DNA of 64,000 nucleotides. Origin: Dehalococcoidia bacterium. Lineage in GTDB: Bacteria > Chloroflexota > Dehalococcoidia > UBA2979. Under the pieces are notes generated by a model that saw nothing but the letters and a program-made list of their open reading frames with translations, was not told where the DNA came from and made no database searches. The DNA lies in assembly GCA_009379925.1 (NCBI GenBank), contig WHSU01000015.1, positions 3,446 to 67,445 on the forward strand, in the 5' to 3' direction. Each line of letters opens with the position of its first letter. The stretch's first letter is position 1. Of the stretch, positions 3,568 to 12,648 are shown piece after piece. The translations under genes were made by a program, and so were the position numbers.

Positions 3568-4554
3568 ATGTCCCAGCACCCGCGCCCATTCCCGCGCCGC
3601 CGCTTCCTGGCTGGCGCCGGCGGCCTGGCCTTCGCCACGGCGTTCCTCGCCGCCTGTGGCGAGAGCGACGCCGGCGACGACGAAGCGGCGACCGTCACCA
3701 TCGACGACTACTTCGGACCGGTCACGATTCCGGCGGATCCCCAACGGGTGGTCGCGGGGGACTCGGTCACCCTCGGGAACATGCTCGCGCTCGGTGCGAA
3801 GCCGATCGGCGCGGGCGTGAACCGAAACTCGTTGCCCGGCTACCTGGGCGACCAGATGGACGGCGTCGCGGACCTTACCGCGGACAGCGGGATCGATGTG
3901 GAGCAGGCGCTCGCCCTGGGCCCGGACCTCGCCATCACCTTCGCCGGCTTCGCCGACGACCCGTGGAACCAGGACAACTACGACCGCTACAAGGCGGCGC
4001 TCCCCACGTTCGGATATCAGTACGGGTACACGTACATCGAAGAGATCACGCTCAACCTCACGGAGGTCGCCCGGGCGCTCAACCGCAGCGAACGCGCACA
4101 GGAGCTGATCGACCAGTACGAGGAGCGCGTAGCCGGCCTCCGTCAGCGGACGTCCGACGCCGGCCTGGCGGACAAACCCGTGTCGGTGATCCGCCTGTCG
4201 CAGGACGGCAATTACTCGATCCGCATCGGGTCATCCGAAAGCATCGTGTTTCGGGCGCTCGGAATCGCTCAGCCGGAGGGCCAGCGGAACCCGGACGACT
4301 TCAGCATCGAGGTGAGCCTGGAGAACCTGAACCTCCTGAACGAGGCGGACACCGTCTTCGTCTACGTGGACGACAATGCCGCGAGCGAACAGTCGGTCGT
4401 CACAGAGAACGCGGTGTGGCAGAGCCTGGAGCCCGTGCGGAACAACCGGGTCCACTTCGTGAACTCCGGCATCTGGAACAGCATCGACATCATTGGCCTG
4501 ATGCACATCCTCGACGACGTCGAGGAACTGCTGATCGCGCCGGCCGAGGCGTAG
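3568..4554 (+). CDS. Iron-siderophore ABC substrate-binding lipoprotein 3 (Tat signal, FhuD/FepB-like)
   Basis: RRRFLAG...LAAC, VTIPADPQRVVA, EVSLENLNLLNEAD, WQSLEPVRNNRV; AGGAG RBS upstream. Confidence 0.9.
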   Translation: MSQHPRPFPRRRFLAGAGGLAFATAFLAACGESDAGDDEAATVTIDDYFGPVTIPADPQRVVAGDSVTLGNMLALGAKPIGAGVNRNSLPGYLGDQMDGVADLTADSGIDVEQALALGPDLAITFAGFADDPWNQDNYDRYKAALPTFGYQYGYTYIEEITLNLTEVARALNRSERAQELIDQYEERVAGLRQRTSDAGLADKPVSVIRLSQDGNYSIRIGSSESIVFRALGIAQPEGQRNPDDFSIEVSLENLNLLNEADTVFVYVDDNAASEQSVVTENAVWQSLEPVRNNRVHFVNSGIWNSIDIIGLMHILDDVEELLIAPAEA

Positions 4555-4561
4555 CGCTCGG

Positions 4562-5311
4562 ATGCCGGGCCCCGGAGCGACCGTAATCGATGACTGGGCG
4601 CCGCCTGCGGGCGCCCGGTGCCCGCGCATCGAGGTCGGCGCCCCGGACCCCACCGATGGCCGGCGCTGGTTCCGTGTCGCGGACCTCGCCGACCCCGCCG
4701 GCGGCATCCTCGACTGCGTGCTTGCCGAGATGGCAACAAACCGCGGCTACTCGGACGGGCATTCGCAAGGGGGTGGCCTCTCATTGCTGACCGCCGGCGC
4801 CGCATTGGAAGTGGTGCTGCGCACCTTTGGGGGCGATCCGCTTCCGGTCCTTCGTCCGGGTTCGACCTGGTTCCAGGTCTCCCCGTACGGCAACGCGACG
4901 GCCGTGCGCGTCGAGTCCCGGGAGACGACTTCCCCCTCGGTCGCGGCGTTGCGCGCGATCCTCCGCGGCCTCCTGGCGCCGTTCTACGCCGCGATCCACG
5001 CGCGCACAGGGTTTCCTGTGGTCGCCCAGTGGGCGCAACTGGAGTCGAACATCGCCTACTCGATGCTCGGCGCGCCGGACATCCCACAGGTCCAGGCCGT
5101 CGAGTTCCTCGACCGTTTGTTCGCGGACGGGGACGTCCTCCATCGGGCGCGCCCCCGCATCTCGTGGGTGGAACGACGCGGCGCGCCGCTCGCCTTCGTC
5201 ACGAGGCGGGTCTGCTGCTTCAACTTCCGCGGCATGAACGGCGAATACTGCGGCAGCCAGTGCCCGATCGTCCCGGCACCCGAACGCGCCCGGAGGGCCA
5301 TCGATGACTGA
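4562..5311 (+). CDS. FhuF-like ferric-siderophore reductase ([2Fe-2S])
   Basis: C-terminal RRVCCFNFRGMNGEYCGSQCP (C-C-x10-C-x3-C); sits in a siderophore uptake operon. Confidence 0.8.
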   Translation: MPGPGATVIDDWAPPAGARCPRIEVGAPDPTDGRRWFRVADLADPAGGILDCVLAEMATNRGYSDGHSQGGGLSLLTAGAALEVVLRTFGGDPLPVLRPGSTWFQVSPYGNATAVRVESRETTSPSVAALRAILRGLLAPFYAAIHARTGFPVVAQWAQLESNIAYSMLGAPDIPQVQAVEFLDRLFADGDVLHRARPRISWVERRGAPLAFVTRRVCCFNFRGMNGEYCGSQCPIVPAPERARRAIDD

Positions 5312-6122
5312 CACCCAACAGGAGACGACGGTCCTCGAACCGCTGGCGACGGCCACCTTCATCACCACGGTGGCGCGCGTCGAGCACATCGCGCGGTCGT
5401 TCGTCCGCATCACGTTCGCGGGCGGCGACCTCGAGCACTTCCAAAGCGTCGGCCCGGACCAGTTTCTCTACCTGCTCCTGCCGCCGCCCGGCCGCCGGCA
5501 ACTCACCATCGACGCCGGGTTCACCTGGGACCAGTACCGCGACATGCCCGAGCAGGACCGGCCAGTCGGCGCGTATTACACCGTGCGCCACCACCGCCCC
5601 GAGGTTGCGGAGCTGGACATCGATGTCTTCCTGCACGCGGAACGCGGCCCGGCCTCCGGCTGGGCGGCGACGGCGCAGCCGGGCGACCCGGTCGCGCTAT
5701 GGGGACCGCGGATCGCCTACGCGCCGCCCGCGGACACCGCGTCCCTCTTGCTCCTCGCCGACGAGGCCGGGATCCCGGCGCTGGCGTCGATCCTCGAGTC
5801 GCTTGCGCCAGGTACCCCGGCGCGCGCCTTCATCGAGGTCTCGGAGGCAGCCGACGAGCAGTCGCTCCTCGCCGCGACGGACGCCGATGTGACATGGCTG
5901 CACCGCAATGGCCGCGAGCCCGGCGGCCCGACCCTCCTCCTCGATGCCGTGCGCGACCTCGATCTCGCACCCACCGGCGTCTACGCCTGGGGCGGCGGCG
6001 AGATCCGCGCGATGAACGACCTGCGTCGCTACCTGCGGCAGGAGTGCGGCCTCGCCCGGACGGCGACGAGTCTGGTCGGGTACTGGCGGCACCCGCACCA
6101 CACGGAGGACGCGCAGGAGTAG
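5304..6122 (+). CDS. Siderophore-interacting protein (ViuB/YqjH family, FAD-binding)
   Basis: RITFAGGDL, YYTVR, GPASGWA, LLLADEAGIPA, VTWLHR and GYWR motifs. Confidence 0.93.
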   Translation: MTDTQQETTVLEPLATATFITTVARVEHIARSFVRITFAGGDLEHFQSVGPDQFLYLLLPPPGRRQLTIDAGFTWDQYRDMPEQDRPVGAYYTVRHHRPEVAELDIDVFLHAERGPASGWAATAQPGDPVALWGPRIAYAPPADTASLLLLADEAGIPALASILESLAPGTPARAFIEVSEAADEQSLLAATDADVTWLHRNGREPGGPTLLLDAVRDLDLAPTGVYAWGGGEIRAMNDLRRYLRQECGLARTATSLVGYWRHPHHTEDAQE

Positions 6123-6264
6123 TCGGCGGTCCGCGCTGCACCGTCGCGCGGACAATTCGATGCGTCCCTCGCCTGGATGGCTCCGCCGCAAGGCGGTGCG
6201 TCCCATGTCGCCGGACGGCGGCCACATGGCCGCCACCCGCGACACAGCCGGCCCTATTCTCGAC

Positions 6265-6285
6265 TACTCAGAGTCTGAGTATGAT
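6265..6285 (+). promoter_or_regulatory. Palindromic operator TACTCA-N5-TGAGTA overlapping a TATGAT -10
   Basis: tactca gagtc tgagta at 6265-6281 and TATGAT at 6280-6285; same layout as the site at 7245. Confidence 0.7.
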
Positions 6286-6360
6286 ACTGGTTCGGTTGAA
6301 GTGCCTGCGTTTGCGCGGCCGCTGGACGAGTCAGCGACCCACGATGGAAGAGGCGCCGCG

Positions 6361-7200
6361 ATGACACGTCCTACCCACGCCCTCCGCCCTGATGCGTCCG
6401 CAGCCTTCGCCGCGTACCGGGAAATGGTCGAAGCGCACCGGGAACAGGTCGGTCGACTCGCCGAGGAACTGCAGCAGGGCGACGAGTTCTTGCGCGCGCG
6501 GGTCAACTCCTTCCGGCCGGGTGTCCTCGAAATCGAGGAGTGGGAGCACGTCGCGGCGCTGGCGCGGCCCGAGGACGCCTGGCTCGACATCGGAGCCGGC
6601 GCCGGGCGGTTCGTGGTGCCGCTGAGCGCGCGCGTCGCGCGGGTGATCGCCATCGAGTCATCCGCGGTGATGCGCGAGGCGCTGGCAGAGGCGACATCCG
6701 ACCTCCCGAACGTCGACATCCTCGACCTGCGCTGGCCACCGCGCGACGACGCCGGACCGCGGGGAAACGTGGCCCTGGCGGCGAATGTGCTGTACGACGC
6801 GACGGAGCTGGAGTCCTTCCTCGAGGCGATGGAACGGCACGCCGACACCAGCGTGGTCGTCGTCTCGGACCGGGCGCCTCGCACGCCGGACCCGGAGATC
6901 TGGGAAGCGCTCTTCGGCGAGGCGTACCGTCCACTGCCCGCGCTTCGCGAGTTGTTGGCGGTGCTCGGGGCACTCGGGCGCCGCTTCGAGATGCGCACGG
7001 AGCCTGCGGCGCCGGTCCCTCCCGTGCCGCTCGATGTCGGGCATCGCCAGATGCGGTGGCGGTACGGCCTCGCCGAGGGCTCGGAGCGAGATCGCCGGCT
7101 GCGGGAGTCGCTCATCGAGCGGTACGGCACGCCCGGCGAGATGCTCGCGCTGCCGCCGCGACGCGCCTTCACCGCCGTCGTGTGGTGGCAGTCATCCTGA
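6361..7200 (+). CDS. Class I SAM-dependent methyltransferase
   Basis: Motif I WLDIGAGAGRF, post-I VIAIESS, LAANVLY. ATG at 6361 follows a GGAAGAGG RBS. Confidence 0.85.
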   Translation: MTRPTHALRPDASAAFAAYREMVEAHREQVGRLAEELQQGDEFLRARVNSFRPGVLEIEEWEHVAALARPEDAWLDIGAGAGRFVVPLSARVARVIAIESSAVMREALAEATSDLPNVDILDLRWPPRDDAGPRGNVALAANVLYDATELESFLEAMERHADTSVVVVSDRAPRTPDPEIWEALFGEAYRPLPALRELLAVLGALGRRFEMRTEPAAPVPPVPLDVGHRQMRWRYGLAEGSERDRRLRESLIERYGTPGEMLALPPRRAFTAVVWWQSS

Positions 7201-7237
7201 GCGCGGTCGCGGTGGACGCAACGGAGAAGCCGCGACG

Positions 7238-7265
7238 TTGACAATACTCACGCCCCGAGTATGAT
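7238..7265 (+). promoter_or_regulatory. sigma70 promoter (TTGACA-N16-TATGAT) with a TACTCA-N5-CGAGTA operator in the spacer
   Basis: TTGACA at 7238-7243, tactca cgccc cgagta at 7245-7261, TATGAT at 7260-7265. The ATG at 7274 has no RBS, so the mRNA is probably near-leaderless. Confidence 0.8.
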
Positions 7266-7273
7266 TCGCCTCC

Positions 7274-7843
7274 ATGCTCGAACATCCTGCGCCACCGTTC
7301 GATCCGACACCTAAGTCGATCGGGGCGCTCAAGCCGCTTGAATACGCACTGCTGGGGTTGCTCAGCGAGCAACCATCCCACGGGTACGTGCTGCAGCAGG
7401 CGTTCTCGGAGAGCGCCGACCTCGGCGCGGTGATCCGTGTCGAGGCGCCGACCCTCTACGCCGCGCTGAAGGAGCTGGCCGCGCGTGGGCTGATCGCCGG
7501 TCACGAGGTCAAGCGCGGCAGCCGTCCCGCACGCACGGTCTTCGAACTCACCGCCGATGGGAGCACCGCGCTCGAGGAGTGGCTGACGGCGCCCGTGGAG
7601 CGGCTCCGCGAGATCCGCCTCGACTTCCTGCTGAAGCTGTACTTCCTGCGCCGGCGTGGCGCCGACAGCGCGCGCGCACTCGTCGACGCCCAGGTCGCGG
7701 CGTGCCACCGCTACCTAGCGCGGTTGGAGGCCTGGACGGCGGAGCTTCCCCTCGACAGCTGGGTCTACCTCGTGGCCGAGTCGCGAGTCGTCGCCGCGCG
7801 CGGCACGCTCGAGTGGCTTCGCTCGTTCCGCGGTCGGGTCTGA
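7274..7843 (+). CDS. PadR-family transcriptional regulator (AphA-like, long C-terminal domain)
   Basis: LEYALLGLLSEQPSHGYVL, TLYAALKELAARGLI, RPARTVFELTADG, FLLKLYF. Confidence 0.92.
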   Translation: MLEHPAPPFDPTPKSIGALKPLEYALLGLLSEQPSHGYVLQQAFSESADLGAVIRVEAPTLYAALKELAARGLIAGHEVKRGSRPARTVFELTADGSTALEEWLTAPVERLREIRLDFLLKLYFLRRRGADSARALVDAQVAACHRYLARLEAWTAELPLDSWVYLVAESRVVAARGTLEWLRSFRGRV

Positions 7844-8700
7844 TGTCCGTAGTAGCCCGCCGTGGGGCGAGGCGGCGCTGGCTGTGGCTGCTGCCGCTGG
7901 CCGCCACCGCGGCGATGCTCGGGGCCTGCGGGGACGACGCCAACGAGACCCCGACCGCGACCATGACCGCTAGCGCGCCGACCCCAGGCGGCACGCTGAG
8001 CGTGTTCGCCGCGGCGTCCCTGTCCGAGGCGTTCCGGGCGATTGGCAACGCCTTCGAAGCGGAGCACCCGGACGTGTCGGTGGAGTTCAACTTCGCCGGG
8101 TCAAGCGCGCTCGCCACGCAGGTCGAGCAGGCCGCACCCTCCGATGTCTTCGCGAGCGCGAACATGGAGCAGATGCAGCGGCTCGTCGATGCCGACCTGA
8201 TCACGAGCGATCCGCGGGTCTTCGCCCAGAACCTGCCGGTGATCGTGGTGCCGGCCGACAACCCGGGCGAGGTCTCCTCGGCCGCAGACCTGGCGGACTC
8301 CGGGCTGAGCCTGGTGCTCGCGCTCGAGGACGTACCGGCCGGCCAGTACGCGCGCGACGTGTTCGCGAACCTGGCCGGCGAGCCCGAATACGGCGCCGGC
8401 TTCGAGGAGGAGGTCCTCGACAACGTCGTCTCCTCCGAGGAGGACGTGCGCGCTGTGCTCGTCAAGGTGGAGCTTGGCGAGGCCGACGCGGGGGTGGTCT
8501 ACAAGACCGACGCGGCGGTGACCCCCGGCACAGTGCGGGTGATCGAATTCCCGGTCGCGTCGAACGTGATCGCCAACTACCCGATCGCTGGGACGGCGGA
8601 CACGGACAACCCGGAGGCCGCCGCAGCCTTCATCGACTTCGTGCTCGGCGAGACGGCGCAGGGCATTCTGACCGCCGCGGGCTTCGATCCGGCGCCATGA
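7843..8700 (+). CDS. modA: Molybdate ABC transporter substrate-binding lipoprotein
   Basis: LGAC lipobox, LSVFAAASL, FNFAGSSAL, DVFASAN, VPAGQYA, DVRAVL, GEADAGVVYKTD. ATG overlaps the padR stop (TGATG). Confidence 0.93.
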   Translation: MSVVARRGARRRWLWLLPLAATAAMLGACGDDANETPTATMTASAPTPGGTLSVFAAASLSEAFRAIGNAFEAEHPDVSVEFNFAGSSALATQVEQAAPSDVFASANMEQMQRLVDADLITSDPRVFAQNLPVIVVPADNPGEVSSAADLADSGLSLVLALEDVPAGQYARDVFANLAGEPEYGAGFEEEVLDNVVSSEEDVRAVLVKVELGEADAGVVYKTDAAVTPGTVRVIEFPVASNVIANYPIAGTADTDNPEAAAAFIDFVLGETAQGILTAAGFDPAP

Positions 8701-9533
8701 TGGGACGCCGAGGACCGCGGCACCGGCCCGATCAGCGGTCTCTGTACACCGGATTCGCTGCGCCGGCGGCCCTCGCGCTCCTCTTCCTCGGCGTACCGCT
8801 GGTAGCGCTGGCCTACGAGGCGGCGACCAGCGGCGGCATCGGCGACAGGCTCACGAGCGACGAGACGCTGGCCGCGCTGCGCCTCTCCCTGATCACCAGC
8901 ACGCTCACGCTTGTCCTGGCGCTGCTGCTCGTCACACCGCTCGCCTACCTCCTGGCGCGGGCGGACTTCCCCGGCAAGCGGCTCGTCGACACCCTGATCG
9001 ACCTGCCGCTCGTCCTGCCGCCGACCGTAGCCGGCGTTGCGCTGCTGGTCGCCTTCGGGCGGCGCGGCGTGCTGGGCCCGTCGCTCGAGGCGAGCGGGAT
9101 TGAGCTGGCGTTCACGACAGCGGCGGTGATCGTCGCGCAACTCTTCGTGTCCGCCCCCTTCCTCGCGCGCAGTCTCAAGGCCGGGTTCGAGGCCGTCGAC
9201 CCGGCGTACGAAGCCGTCTCCGCGACGCTCGGAATCTCCGCGTTGCGCACGTTCTGGCGCATCTCCCTGCCGCTGGCGCGTCCAGCTCTGATCAGCGGCT
9301 CCGTGCTCTGCTGGTCGCGGGCGCTGGGCGAGCTTGGGGCGACGCTGATCTTCGCCGGGAACTTCGAGGGCCGCACCCAGACGATGCCGCTCGCGATCAT
9401 CACCGCCTTCCAATCGTCGAGCGGGCTCGCGGGGGCGATGGCGCTGTCCGTGATCCTCGTGGGCGTCGCGTTCGTCCTGCTGCTGCTCATGCGCCTCACG
9501 ACGGTCGACCCGGGCCGGCAGGCCGGCGGCTGA
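8697..9533 (+). CDS. modB: Molybdate ABC transporter permease
   Basis: DLPLVLPPTVAGVALL, EAA-loop region, SRALGELGAT, RTQTMPLAI. Confidence 0.93.
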   Translation: MMGRRGPRHRPDQRSLYTGFAAPAALALLFLGVPLVALAYEAATSGGIGDRLTSDETLAALRLSLITSTLTLVLALLLVTPLAYLLARADFPGKRLVDTLIDLPLVLPPTVAGVALLVAFGRRGVLGPSLEASGIELAFTTAAVIVAQLFVSAPFLARSLKAGFEAVDPAYEAVSATLGISALRTFWRISLPLARPALISGSVLCWSRALGELGATLIFAGNFEGRTQTMPLAIITAFQSSSGLAGAMALSVILVGVAFVLLLLMRLTTVDPGRQAGG

Positions 9534-9537
9534 GCGC

Positions 9538-10623
9538 GTGCTAAACGTCGACATCGCGCTCCGCGTCGGTTCCTTCGACCTCGAGATCGCATTCGCGATC
9601 GACCGCGAACTACTGGTGCTGTTCGGGCCGTCGGGCTCCGGCAAGAGCATGACGCTCGGCGCGATTGCCGGGCTTCGCACGCCGCAGCGTGGTCGCATCG
9701 AGGTAGGTGAGCGCGTTGTCTTCGACAGTGCCACCGGTCTGAACCTGCCGCCTCAGCGTCGAAACGTTGGGTACGTGGTGCAGCAGCTCGCACTGTTCCC
9801 GCATCTCGATGTCGCCAGGAACATCGCGTACGGCCTCGGAGGGCTCAGCCGGGCGGCAAGGCGGCAACGTGTCGAGGAGCTGCTGGCGCTGCTCAAGCTC
9901 GATGGCCTTGCCGGGCGAATGCCGGCGCAGCTCTCGGGCGGGCAGCAGCAGCGGGTCGCGCTGGCCAGGGCCCTCGCACGGCCGACCGACGTGTTGCTGC
10001 TCGACGAGCCGTTCTCCGCGCTGGACGAGGCGCTGCGCGCCGATCTACGCATCGAGCTGTTGCGCCTCCGCCAGGAGCTAGCGTTGCCGGTGGTGTTCGT
10101 AACGCACGACCTCCGCGAGGCGCACCTGCTGGGCGACCGCATCGCCGTGCTGGACCAGGGGCGGGTGCTGCAGTTTGGTCCGCGCGAGGAGGTGTTTCGC
10201 ACACCCACGTCTCGGCGTGTCGCCGAGCTGACGGGTGCGCAGAACATCTTTCGCGGTCGGGCGTTCAACGGCCGGCTGGAGGCGGGGGGGCTGCCCCTGC
10301 GCGCCAACCTTCCCGACGCCATCGCGGGCGACATCGAGATCGCGATCCGCGCTGAACTCTGCAACCTGCGCCGGCTCGATCCGGATAGCGAACTACCGGA
10401 GAACTGCTACGTCGCACGAGTGACTGCCAACCTGGCGTTCGGGAGCATGCACCTGCTCCGCCTGGAGCCCGAGGGTCACGGCGTGCCGATCGAGATCGAG
10501 ATCGCCGCACGTCCGTACGAAGTGCTCGGTGTCCACTCGCAGGACCGGTGGGTGGTGGAACTGCCCGCCGACGACCTCTACGTCTTCGCCGCGTCCCCCG
10601 AGGAGGCTGCGCCGCTGCGGTGA
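9538..10623 (+). CDS. modC: Molybdate ABC transporter ATP-binding protein
   Basis: GPSGSGKS, NLPPQRRNVGY, LSGGQQQR, LLLDEPFSALD, VTHD. Confidence 0.9.
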   Translation: MLNVDIALRVGSFDLEIAFAIDRELLVLFGPSGSGKSMTLGAIAGLRTPQRGRIEVGERVVFDSATGLNLPPQRRNVGYVVQQLALFPHLDVARNIAYGLGGLSRAARRQRVEELLALLKLDGLAGRMPAQLSGGQQQRVALARALARPTDVLLLDEPFSALDEALRADLRIELLRLRQELALPVVFVTHDLREAHLLGDRIAVLDQGRVLQFGPREEVFRTPTSRRVAELTGAQNIFRGRAFNGRLEAGGLPLRANLPDAIAGDIEIAIRAELCNLRRLDPDSELPENCYVARVTANLAFGSMHLLRLEPEGHGVPIEIEIAARPYEVLGVHSQDRWVVELPADDLYVFAASPEEAAPLR

Positions 10624-10653
10624 TGCGTGGACGGGCCTCGATGGCCCGGGGGG

Positions 10654-11694
10654 CTACTGGTAGACGATGTAGTCGGGCGGACGGTCGAGGGCCATGAGGT
10701 CATCCGGCTGGATCAACGGCTCGTCCCAGCGGTAGAAGAGCTTGATGGCCGGGCGCTCGGAATACTCCGCCAGCGCATAGCGCTCGTATCCCTCCAGCTT
10801 CGGCCACGGCGCGCCGTAGCCGTCCATGTCTACGCTGACCTCCACCTCCGGGACGTCATCGAAGTCGGCGGTGTCCGCCAGCATCTCCGGACGGAACTGG
10901 TGCAGCACCAGCACCTTGGGCGGCAAGCCGTGCTCCCGCACGAGGTCGGCGAGGTAGCCCTGCACCTCGTTCACGTCCGCAGCACCCAGCGTGCCGATCA
11001 CGACGCCGGGCGCGGCGCCGTACGACCTGGTGGCGAACTCCGGGTCGAGCGCCAGGTGGACGAACGGCTCCTCGAGGAACCGCTCCAGCCGCTGTACGTC
11101 GGTCAGGGGCGTCGACCAGCCGATCTGCAGGTCGAGGAATAGCAGCAGTCCGTGTTCTCGCGCCGCCGCCACATACGGCTCGATCACCTCGGGCGGCATG
11201 CGCTCCAGGTAGAGTCCGTCCGGCATCGGGTCGCGCTGCGCGACATCGACGATGAGGTGCAGCGCGGGGATGACGTCCTGGTCGCCGTTAAGCGCGTCGT
11301 ACTCGGCGGCCAGCGCGCGCAGCTCGGCGACCGCGTCATCGATGTCCTCGTGCGCGCCGAGTTCGCCCATGACCGCGACGCCGGGGTGGCCGTAGAAGGA
11401 GACGACGAGCGCGTCCTGGAAGTACGAGCGGGGTGGAACGGCTTCGACGGGCTCGGGTCCCGCCATTTGCCCCACCGGCTCGGGACCGGCGAGACGCGGA
11501 GCGCGCGCCAGCAGGAAGCTGAGGTCGATCTGGATCAGGATCGGTCGGGGTCCGTCCGGCGCCACCACCAGCGGGGGCGGCAGGGCTGGTGCGGCGGCGC
11601 TCGTCGTCCCGGGGAGAGCAGCAACGACGAGTGCGAGGAAGAGCACCACGGTCAGCGCGGCGTGCCGGGCGGCACGTCGAGAGGTCATGGTCAT
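10654..11694 (-). CDS. Conserved secreted hypothetical protein (possible glycoside-hydrolase-like fold)
   Basis: N-terminal signal peptide and conserved-looking blocks YGHP, LDLQIG, HLALDPEF, LVLHQF, DMDGYG, KLFY, YIVYQ. Confidence 0.75.
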   Translation of the reverse strand: MTMTSRRAARHAALTVVLFLALVVAALPGTTSAAAPALPPPLVVAPDGPRPILIQIDLSFLLARAPRLAGPEPVGQMAGPEPVEAVPPRSYFQDALVVSFYGHPGVAVMGELGAHEDIDDAVAELRALAAEYDALNGDQDVIPALHLIVDVAQRDPMPDGLYLERMPPEVIEPYVAAAREHGLLLFLDLQIGWSTPLTDVQRLERFLEEPFVHLALDPEFATRSYGAAPGVVIGTLGAADVNEVQGYLADLVREHGLPPKVLVLHQFRPEMLADTADFDDVPEVEVSVDMDGYGAPWPKLEGYERYALAEYSERPAIKLFYRWDEPLIQPDDLMALDRPPDYIVYQ

Positions 11695-11871: not shown

Positions 11872-12648
11872 GTGGATCCGCTGGTCAAGCGGGTCCTGGC
11901 GGCACACGAGCCGCCGGCATCGCTCAGGGCGCTGCTCGCGCTACGCGAGCACGAGCCCTTCGCACCACAGGCGCTGGCGCGCGTCGTGAGCCAGGCCCCA
12001 CTGATCGTCGAGCGCATCCGCCTGGGCTACGCGGCCCCCACCGCCGTGGCGGACTACGGCAATCGCCGCCCGTACACGGTGCGCGACGCGATCGCGGACA
12101 CGGTAGGCCCCGACCTACTGCGCCACGAGTCGGCTGCGTCCTGGGAGTGGACGTACGTGGTGGCCGCGTACACGACGGTGCTGGCCGAAGCCCTCCAGCG
12201 CCACACCGACGACGCATTCGCGGCCGGGTTGCTGCTCAACGCGTCGCGACTGCTCATGCTCCACCACGCCACGGACGACACCGAGCGGGCGCTGGAACGC
12301 GCGCGCCAGTCGAGCATCCCGGTCGCGCAGGCGGAGCGAGACACGCTCGGCTACTCGCACCTCGAGTTCGGGCGCGCGCTCGCGGAGGCGTGGGGGCTAC
12401 CGGGCAGCATCCAACCGGCGTTCGACGAGGACGCCGACCCGGAGAGTCTGTCCGGGCTGCTGCGTCGCGCCGAGCGGATCGCCTGGCAACACGGCATGGA
12501 CGACCCACGCGGCGTGCGGCCCGCCGCCGGCGCGCTGGAAGAGCGCGCGCCGGCCCTCGACGCCTTCCGCGAGAGCCGGCAGGCGGCGGGTGGCGTGCTG
12601 GCACGGTTGCGCGGGTTCATGGCCGCCGCGCACATCGAGTTCCAGTAG
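11872..12648 (+). CDS. HDOD-domain protein (HD motif degenerate)
   Basis: AFAAGLLLNASRLLM (canonical AGLLHDIG) and ERDTLGYSHLEFGRALAEAWGLP. Confidence 0.8.
   Translation: MDPLVKRVLAAHEPPASLRALLALREHEPFAPQALARVVSQAPLIVERIRLGYAAPTAVADYGNRRPYTVRDAIADTVGPDLLRHESAASWEWTYVVAAYTTVLAEALQRHTDDAFAAGLLLNASRLLMLHHATDDTERALERARQSSIPVAQAERDTLGYSHLEFGRALAEAWGLPGSIQPAFDEDADPESLSGLLRRAERIAWQHGMDDPRGVRPAAGALEERAPALDAFRESRQAAGGVLARLRGFMAAAHIEFQ

Follow-up and report, generated by a model that had tools for sequence, protein, structure and literature searches.

We analysed a 64,000-nucleotide (nt) stretch of a Dehalococcoidia genome, hereafter called the window, which contains three related elements: a set of molybdate uptake genes headed by a gene for a PadR-family regulator (padR-modABC), a gene for a methyltransferase dependent on S-adenosylmethionine (SAM) that precedes this set, and a 17-base-pair (bp) palindrome that occurs once in each of the two corresponding promoters. 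The source assembly consists of 3,544,553 bases in 71 contigs, is 87% complete and has a GC content of 69.8%; the window is located on contig C29. In the following, labels beginning with G, C, L and P denote genomes (the source genome being G000), contigs, fetched loci and database proteins, respectively.

The padR-modABC set comprises four tightly packed genes on the forward strand. The first, padR (7274-7843, +), encodes a two-domain regulator of 189 amino acids (aa): its N-terminal winged helix-turn-helix (residues 26-102) matches PF03551 with 54.8 bits against a cut-off of 27, and its C-terminal helical domain (residues 114-184) matches PF10400 (Vir_act_alpha_C) with 25.3 bits against a cut-off of 22.4. 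The regulator matches PadR models only and is not a member of the ModE family; its nearest solved structure is that of Bacillus subtilis PadR (5x11, E = 1.1e-20, profile match over residues 5-144). The product of modA (7843-8700, +) is a molybdate-binding lipoprotein, with RR in its signal and LGAC as its lipobox, which scores 150.5 bits on the modA equivalog TIGR01256 (cut-off 62.5), as against 33-45 bits on the WtpA models, whose cut-offs are 243-355. The ABC permease ModB (8697-9533, +) scores 261.9 bits on TIGR01581 (cut-off 210.3) and 213.8 bits on TIGR02141 (cut-off 182.6), and it also matches WtpB (194 bits) and sulfate permease models (175 bits), under cut-off in either case. The ABC ATPase ModC (9538-10623, +) matches PF00005 with 105 bits and has a weak TOBE-like C-terminal part (TOBE_3, 18.9 bits, under the cut-off of 27). 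The stop codon of padR (TGA, 7841-7843) shares one nucleotide with the ATG of modA (7843-7845), the stop of modA and the ATG of modB overlap as ATGA (8697-8700), and modC starts with a GTG at 9538, 4 nt past modB.

The two palindromes are placed in the same way in their promoters. Candidate operator 1, at 6265-6281 in the methyltransferase promoter, is a perfect 6-N5-6 palindrome, TACTCA-GAGTC-TGAGTA (TACTCAGAGTCTGAGTA). Candidate operator 2, at 7245-7261, reads TACTCA-CGCCC-CGAGTA (TACTCACGCCCCGAGTA); it fills the spacer between the -35 and -10 hexamers of padR and overlaps the latter. At both sites, the final two bases of the palindrome are the first two bases of a TATGAT hexamer on the forward strand, at 6280-6285 before the methyltransferase gene and at 7260-7265 before padR. 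The former hexamer was read directly and would serve as a -10 box; the latter was both read directly and called by a promoter scan, in which it is paired over 16 nt with a perfect TTGACA at 7238-7243 (+). This padR promoter matches at 11 of 12 positions and is the sole sigma-70-like promoter in the scan of 6000-11000, an interval in which no terminator-like site was found by scanning either. The ATG of padR (7274) begins only 8 nt past the -10 box, and therefore the padR mRNA is probably leaderless. The methyltransferase gene has a GGAAGAGG ribosome-binding site upstream and a 5' untranslated region of about 70 nt, whose predicted fold is no better than that of shuffled sequences (z 0.57). No Rfam match was found in 5900-8000, so an RNA element was rejected.

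The palindrome is rare. The window contains two exact copies and one copy with a single mismatch, whereas 0.07 would be expected from shuffled sequences, and none of 100 shuffles reached three. The whole genome (3.54 Mb) contains three exact copies of TACTCR-N5-YGAGTA, and the only two that are intergenic are those in the window promoters; TATGAT itself occurs only 42 times on the forward strand of the whole genome. Chance is ruled out by this uniqueness among intergenic sequences and by the shuffle counts. Furthermore, the two promoter regions barely align beyond the palindrome and the -10 box, so their similarity is limited to functional elements, and a recent duplication of one promoter is ruled out. 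The first-pass annotation of this DNA, made from the letters alone, had described the overlapping genes and the palindrome shared by two consecutive promoters, and had proposed the genome scan; all of these descriptions hold, and the scan singled out the same two promoters. The third exact copy was considered as a further operator and rejected: it lies at C46:86189 within the open reading frame (ORF) of a penicillin-binding protein, where it covers the codons Y-S-N-G-E-Y, and is taken as chance. A larger regulon was not found either: the one-mismatch sites in the genome number 18, compared with 17 for the reversed control, which is noise. Note that the candidate regulon in this genome thus consists of two promoters only, which is a caveat to the interpretation.

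Conservation of the gene linkage and the palindrome

Gene neighbourhoods were compared in three sets of loci. The first is made up of close relatives: 18 of 61 genomes had a PadR match at E <=1e-10, and 15 loci fetched with wide flanks, together with L005 and L006, gave 17 loci. Genes for Mod proteins adjoin padR in 16 of these according to tblastn, and the 17th, L046, has an SBP_bac_11 gene according to Pfam. Genes of the mod type adjoin padR in every one of the 15 fetched loci, which come from 13 genomes within the same family or class; tblastn showed them in 14 loci and Pfam in L046, and PadR identity goes down to 35%. One of these genomes, G019, has two padR paralogues, L046 (on C157) and L038 (on C77), which are 43% and 56% identical to the window PadR.

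The second set was collected with a PadR profile built from the nine closest sequences, taking one genome per species. It contains 52 loci, 11 of which are the same places as loci of the first set, and it spans Dehalococcoidia, Chloroflexia, Ktedonobacterales, Thermomicrobiales, Anaerolineae, Binatia, Methylomirabilota and metagenome-assembled genomes (MAGs) named 'delta proteobacterium'. Matches to ModA, ModB or ModC lie next to padR in 47 of the 52. The gene order differs among them: padR may be first, it may be divergent (L033/L057), or it may come last, as in the order solute-binding protein (SBP) gene-modB-modC-padR that is found in Ktedonobacterales and some Chloroflexia. In three loci from Thermomicrobiales and Chloroflexia, a gene for a pyridoxal phosphate (PLP)-dependent enzyme (PALP, cysteine-synthase superfamily) stands between padR and modA (L092 6258-7706, L096 6507-7703 and L099 6555-7727), an accessory gene other than the methyltransferase gene.

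The third set is an independent sample. The PadR clade, delimited at E <=1e-22, is present in 87 of 401 sampled Chloroflexota genomes, a count that takes in G000 and two unpublished genomes (G439 and G267), and 20 loci from at least 16 coded families (three each from f82 and f91) were picked before their context was seen. Of these, 12 have mod genes. In L242, padR is followed by XdhC, and in L248 a gene for a Mo-hydroxylase large subunit, padR and a gene for a MobA-like NTP transferase lie in a row. Judged by these neighbours, 14 of the 20 sampled loci connect the clade to molybdenum metabolism, beyond transport alone.

The regulators of the clade also have residues of their own: all 17 mod-linked PadRs that were compared share R110, R112, C144 and Y147, which are mostly missing from nine paralogues whose loci have no ModA or ModB match.

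The palindrome accompanies padR in these relatives. The 52 loci, 533,272 bases in all, contain 18 exact TACTCR-N5-YGAGTA sites, for which the chance expectation, a rough estimate from base composition, is about 0.04. Thirteen of them precede padR by no more than 330 nt. Five more, in L085, L086, L094, L095 and L101, are found about 3.1 kb upstream of padR, and there the order according to tblastn is modB-modC-padR; in L085, the only one of the five that was read, the site stands immediately before the SBP gene that opens the operon. In each of G002, G022 and G027, the only exact site of the genome is the one at padR. Genome G019 has two sites of the TACTCA type, each TACTCA-N5-TGAGTA, and both are at padR paralogues with genes for ModA-type binding proteins downstream. 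Variants of the motif occupy corresponding places in other clades: TAGTCG-N5-CGACTA at the same position in L032/L050, where both half-sites have changed symmetrically, TACTCG-N5-CGARTA in the Binatia loci, and TATTCA-N5-TGAATA in L235, L239 and L249 of the independent sample.

The register of the palindrome relative to the promoter is not fixed. In L005, L006, L035 and L038, it is the left half-site that overlaps a -10-like box (TATACT), and an in-frame ATG or GTG start codon falls inside the right one; the window differs from these in that the right half-site overlaps the -10 box. Because the palindrome is kept while the promoter register shifts, and because it follows padR through rearrangement, TACTCR-N5-YGAGTA is best explained as a putative PadR operator. 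Both the padR-modABC synteny (47/52 and 12/20) and the motif, upstream of padR or about 3.1 kb upstream where padR is last, have therefore proved to be conserved across several classes, which are the points that the first-pass annotation had singled out for examination. As a separate observation, in L036 (the same locus as L063) the 250 nt that separate the palindrome from the start of padR are taken up by about nine tandem copies of a unit of about 17 nt (GGTATGGACGCCGGCAG-like).

The methyltransferase and its relatives

The gene preceding padR (6361-7200, +) encodes a 279-aa class I SAM-dependent methyltransferase with weak matches to Pfam methyltransferase models, the PF08241 match (21.6 bits) being just over the cut-off of 21.2. 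The N-terminus agrees with the consensus of homologues from M1 onward, and the glycine-rich SAM loop (D76-G78-A79-G80-G82) is invariant in 40 homologues, as expected of a class I fold. An AF2 model (pLDDT 94.6) has 2yqz_A as its best VIA match (Z 15.8, rmsd 3.7, 229 residues aligned). The family has no specific name in any of these comparisons: Foldseek against the PDB and a wide VIA search returned generic class I small-molecule methyltransferases only, the ESM Atlas gave 'class I SAM-dependent methyltransferase' clusters only, and all 261 homologues are unnamed class I methyltransferases.

The linkage of this gene to padR is narrower than that of the mod genes. It adjoins padR in divergent orientation in 8 of the 14 closest loci (L051, L053, L054, L055, L056, L059, L061 and L063) and is confined to the closest clade. 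The association reported in the first-pass annotation therefore stands for the nearest relatives and not further, and it has been lost in at least one close relative, G019. In the divergent loci, one operator serves the common intergenic region; in the window, the methyltransferase gene is co-directional with padR and carries its own copy of the operator, as would be expected if co-regulation were selected. Elsewhere the operator is not found: 27 of 29 methyltransferase loci have no site scoring at least 10/12, the two with a site being padR-linked, and a second paralogue in the source genome (contig C4, 44% identity, unrelated neighbours) has none even at a threshold of 9/12. In L051, the methyltransferase match at 4051-4888 is divided between two adjacent frames (4051-4599 and 4601-4888), which suggests a frameshift or an assembly error in the MAG.

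More distant members of the family suggest a function. Three proteins (P0108, P0115 and P0207) join a MobA-like NTP_transf_3 domain to a methyltransferase part that is 35-38% identical to the window protein over its residues 4-253. Among NCBIfam models, MocA and DVU_1551 fit the fused N-terminal domain best, both under cut-off (for MocA, about 100 bits against 186). The fused form occurs in 17 of 78 loci found with P0115, and in all five genomes tested the fused gene is flanked by two MoCoBD_1 genes, each within about 12 kb. In L162, for example, it is accompanied by genes of the CoxM, CoxS and CoxL types and by those for XdhC, an AAA ATPase and a MoCF_biosynth protein. Such fusions with a MocA-like domain, found within Mo-hydroxylase clusters, point to a link between the methyltransferase family and the maturation of the molybdenum cofactor (Moco) or of Mo-enzymes, and away from metalloid methylation. 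The fused proteins form a distant subfamily, from which the window methyltransferase may differ.

The first-pass annotation had instead named a metalloid oxyanion, a metallophore or the inducer as possible substrates of the methyltransferase, a suggestion that gained no support. Metalloid or oxyanion methyltransferase families of the ArsM, TehB or TPMT type are absent from the NCBIfam matches of the protein, and the TehB-like chain 3cgg reaches only Z 13.3 in the VIA comparison, within the generic class I pack.

Two further features of L162 were seen in passing. Directly upstream of the MocA-like/methyltransferase fusion, a 1042-aa protein (3858-6983) combines XdhC (XdhC_CoxI and XdhC_C) with a PLP-dependent decarboxylase domain, and a second XdhC_C in the same locus carries a YHS domain.

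Molybdenum supply and the proposed repressor

The source genome contains MoeA, at least four genes for large subunits of XDH/CODH-family Mo-enzymes, one MocA-like gene and modA, which indicates that the organism uses molybdenum. Only a single match to modA was found in the whole genome. Established types of molybdate control were searched for in this 87%-complete genome: the ModE N-domain model TIGR00637 had no match at E <=0.01, no TOBE/Mop protein above cut-off was found, and the Moco riboswitch RF01055 had no match in the genome, nor in 5900-8000 at E up to 1. The padR-modABC transporter is the only molybdate transporter found in the assembly, and PadR is the only regulator in sight, in agreement with the proposal of the first-pass annotation that control is of a non-ModE kind.

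These observations on the sites, their overlap with the core promoters, the gene families, and the conservation of linkage and operator lead us to the following model. We consider it probable, at roughly 0.7, that PadR (7274-7843) is a local repressor of the padR-modABC and methyltransferase promoters that reports molybdenum status. A PadR dimer would bind the 17-bp TACTCR-N5-YGAGTA element at both promoters, covering the -10 box and, at padR, also the spacer between the -35 and -10 boxes, and would thereby block RNA polymerase; PadR would thus repress its own gene, modABC and the methyltransferase gene. The clade would be specialised in molybdenum homeostasis, both in Chloroflexota and in some other phyla, taking the role held elsewhere by ModE or the Moco riboswitch, and the methyltransferase would be a co-regulated accessory from a family tied to molybdenum cofactor or Mo-hydroxylase maturation. 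We infer PadR as the binder, the negative sign of regulation, the effector and the substrate of the methyltransferase from sequence and genomic context. To this extent, the core interpretation of the first-pass annotation is supported.

How the signal would reach PadR is a separate matter. Our tentative preference, held with somewhat less than even confidence, is for molybdate or tungstate acting as co-repressor, so that the importer is switched off when molybdenum is sufficient. This version is favoured because an importer must close when its substrate is plentiful. In addition, importers with a repressor encoded in their own operon commonly follow this logic, as in NikR with nikABCDE, where the imported metal is the co-repressor.

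Several observations weigh against the model as a whole or against parts of it. The co-repressor mode would be new for the PadR family, as classical PadR leaves DNA on ligand binding, which makes this logic uncertain. The methyltransferase promoter has no good -35 hexamer and hence was not called by the promoter scan. ModC reaches only 225.7 bits on TIGR02142, under the cut-off of 285, with the match confined to its ATPase part. The R-x-R pair is retained in par_L028, a paralogue that lacks a nearby ModA or ModB match. Five of the 52 loci (L071, L080, L097, L098 and L100) have no Mo-related neighbour, three of them adjoining a CNNM/CorC gene with the sequence ending soon after padR, and five of the 20 independently sampled loci (L230, L237, L243, L244 and L247) have no molybdenum link. 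In L241 (5945-7682), the gene that comes after an exact palindrome and padR encodes a Peripla_BP_2 binding protein of the FecB/BtuF type instead of ModA. As for the methyltransferase, there is no operator within 1.5 kb of the closest unlinked orthologue (G019:C17, 54% identity), whose neighbour is an ORF with a weak Oxidored_molyb match, and an orthologue in G091 (49% identity) sits after pstB-phoU. Finally, ORFs resembling the ModE N-domain, all under cut-off, are present in 26 of the 61 relatives, including some that also have a clade PadR. Strict complementarity between ModE and PadR was considered among these relatives and was not seen; given the co-occurrence, the two systems are not strictly alternative. 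In G038, a short ORF (C53:3921-5020) that matches the ModE N-domain with 95.9 bits (cut-off 98.5) adjoins modA, so this class has ModE-like as well as PadR-type neighbours for modA.

The alternative that survives best keeps the repressor and its operators and reverses the logic. An organic ligand that signals molybdenum shortage, such as Mo-free molybdopterin, MPT-AMP or another Moco intermediate, would release PadR from DNA, or Moco itself would be sensed. The closest solved relatives (B. subtilis PadR 5x11, and 6jyi) are sensors of small organic molecules that are released by their ligands, and the occurrence of the clade beside XdhC, MobA-like and Mo-hydroxylase genes (L242 and L248) ties it to cofactor handling as well as to transport; the invariant C144 might ligate molybdenum in a bound cofactor. 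However, R110 and R112, the basic residues specific to the clade, are at least equally suitable for an oxyanion, and importers with an in-operon repressor usually employ the metal as co-repressor. We regard this alternative, in either form, as unlikely.

The identity of the transported ion could also be different: the transporter might carry tungstate or another tetrahedral oxyanion, and the switch would then control that ion, a possibility compatible with the repressor model. The sub-cut-off scores of ModB on WtpB (194 bits) and sulfate permease (175 bits) models would fit such a substrate, as would the score of ModC below the ModC cut-off and the PALP gene between padR and modA in L092, L096 and L099. 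The scores of ModA, above its equivalog cut-off (150.5 against 62.5) and far below the cut-offs of the WtpA models, point the other way, and this is the sole modA in a genome with MoeA and several Mo-enzyme genes; we therefore judge another ion to be quite improbable.

It is very improbable, in our assessment, that PadR binds the palindrome and answers a cue that has nothing to do with molybdenum, for example general stress or toxic compounds, phenolic or other, with the mod genes merely riding along. The loci without a Mo-related neighbour in both samples (5/52 and 5/20) would be explained in this way, and the proteins of the clade carry only the generic names 'PadR family' or 'AphA' in every source. 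Against this, the linkage survives across classes, phyla and gene orders (padR first, last or divergent), there are separate links to XdhC, MocA-like and Mo-hydroxylase genes, and paralogues without a nearby ModA or ModB match differ at the clade-specific residues.

Binding of the palindrome by another factor, or its being a mere promoter element while PadR acts elsewhere, is hardly credible: the overlap of the right half-site with the -10 box means that the promoter could explain part of the conservation, but the motif accompanies padR across phyla and shifts upstream in operons that end with padR, is present as a single copy per genome in G002, G022 and G027, is as strongly conserved in its left half-site as in its right, persists while its position relative to the -10 box and start codon varies among relatives, and has a size and symmetry that suit a winged helix-turn-helix dimer.

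Relation to known systems and neighbouring genes

The proposed repressor combines features of several known systems. Like B. subtilis PadR (5x11), it has an N-terminal winged helix-turn-helix and a C-terminal helical domain in about 185 aa, and the hinge motif RxDFLLKxYF is common to both. As with other two-domain PadR repressors, a palindromic operator of about 16-17 bp, here putative, lies on the promoter of adjacent genes. The differences concern targets, operator and ligand. In place of a detoxifying enzyme or efflux pump, the targets here would be a methyltransferase and the importer of an inorganic oxyanion; the operator is unlike the ATGT-N8-ACAT box of PadR and LmrR; and R110, R112, C144 and Y147 are specific to the mod-linked clade, whose effector may act as a co-repressor.

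The textbook control of molybdate uptake is by ModE and the Moco riboswitch. ModE presumably does the same job, closing modABC according to molybdenum status through a palindrome over the promoter, but it has no homology to the window PadR. The Moco riboswitch governs mod and Moco genes in many bacteria without ModE; it is an RNA element, whereas the regulator here would be a protein. To our knowledge, many phyla lack both. The likeness to NikR-nikABCDE lies in a repressor gene co-transcribed with its ABC importer, the imported ion being the presumed co-repressor; NikR, however, has a ribbon-helix-helix fold instead of the winged helix-turn-helix of PadR, and here the repressor gene is the first in the operon. 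For the methyltransferase, the nearest parallel is with the MocA maturation clusters of the XDH/CODH family, where its distant relatives are fused to a MocA-like NTP_transf_3 domain among CoxL/M/S-type, XdhC and AAA genes, whereas the window methyltransferase is a stand-alone protein next to a transporter.

A well-known repressor fold, with its usual operator logic, would here serve a trace-element importer, and the operator is conserved across phyla; this points to an undescribed type of control over molybdenum supply. Full-text searches, which had subscription journals and supplements outside their scope, found no description linking a PadR regulator to molybdate transport. If the repressor model is correct, PadR proteins would extend from sensing organic molecules to sensing trace-metal oxyanions or cofactors, and annotators would gain a naming rule for a large set of genes now called by the generic names 'PadR' or 'AphA'. 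The link between the methyltransferase and MocA-like domains may likewise represent an unrecognised step in the maturation of XDH/CODH-type enzymes.

A stronger version combines the two parts. The PadR clade would be a third, protein-based class of molybdenum-status sensor, detecting molybdate or the cofactor through R110, R112, C144 and Y147, and the methyltransferase family would perform an unrecognised SAM-dependent methylation in the maturation of molybdopterin cytosine dinucleotide (MCD) or Mo-hydroxylases. The methylation part is suggested by the fusion of the family to a MocA-like domain inside CoxLMS/XdhC clusters; we know of no methylation step in Moco synthesis. We consider this combination somewhat unlikely.

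Upstream of the methyltransferase gene lies a siderophore-iron uptake set identified by Pfam: a Peripla_BP_2 binding protein (3568-4554), a FhuF-like protein with a weak C-terminal 2Fe-2S match (4562-5311) and, directly before the methyltransferase gene, a siderophore-interacting FAD reductase (SIP, 5304-6122). Genes for trace-metal uptake are thus clustered at this locus. Downstream of modC, an ORF of 346 aa on the reverse strand (10654-11694) has a signal-peptide-like N-terminus and no Pfam match, and the next gene (11872-12648, +) encodes an HDOD-domain protein. The one-mismatch copy of the palindrome in the window (12352-12368) lies within this HDOD gene and is taken as chance.

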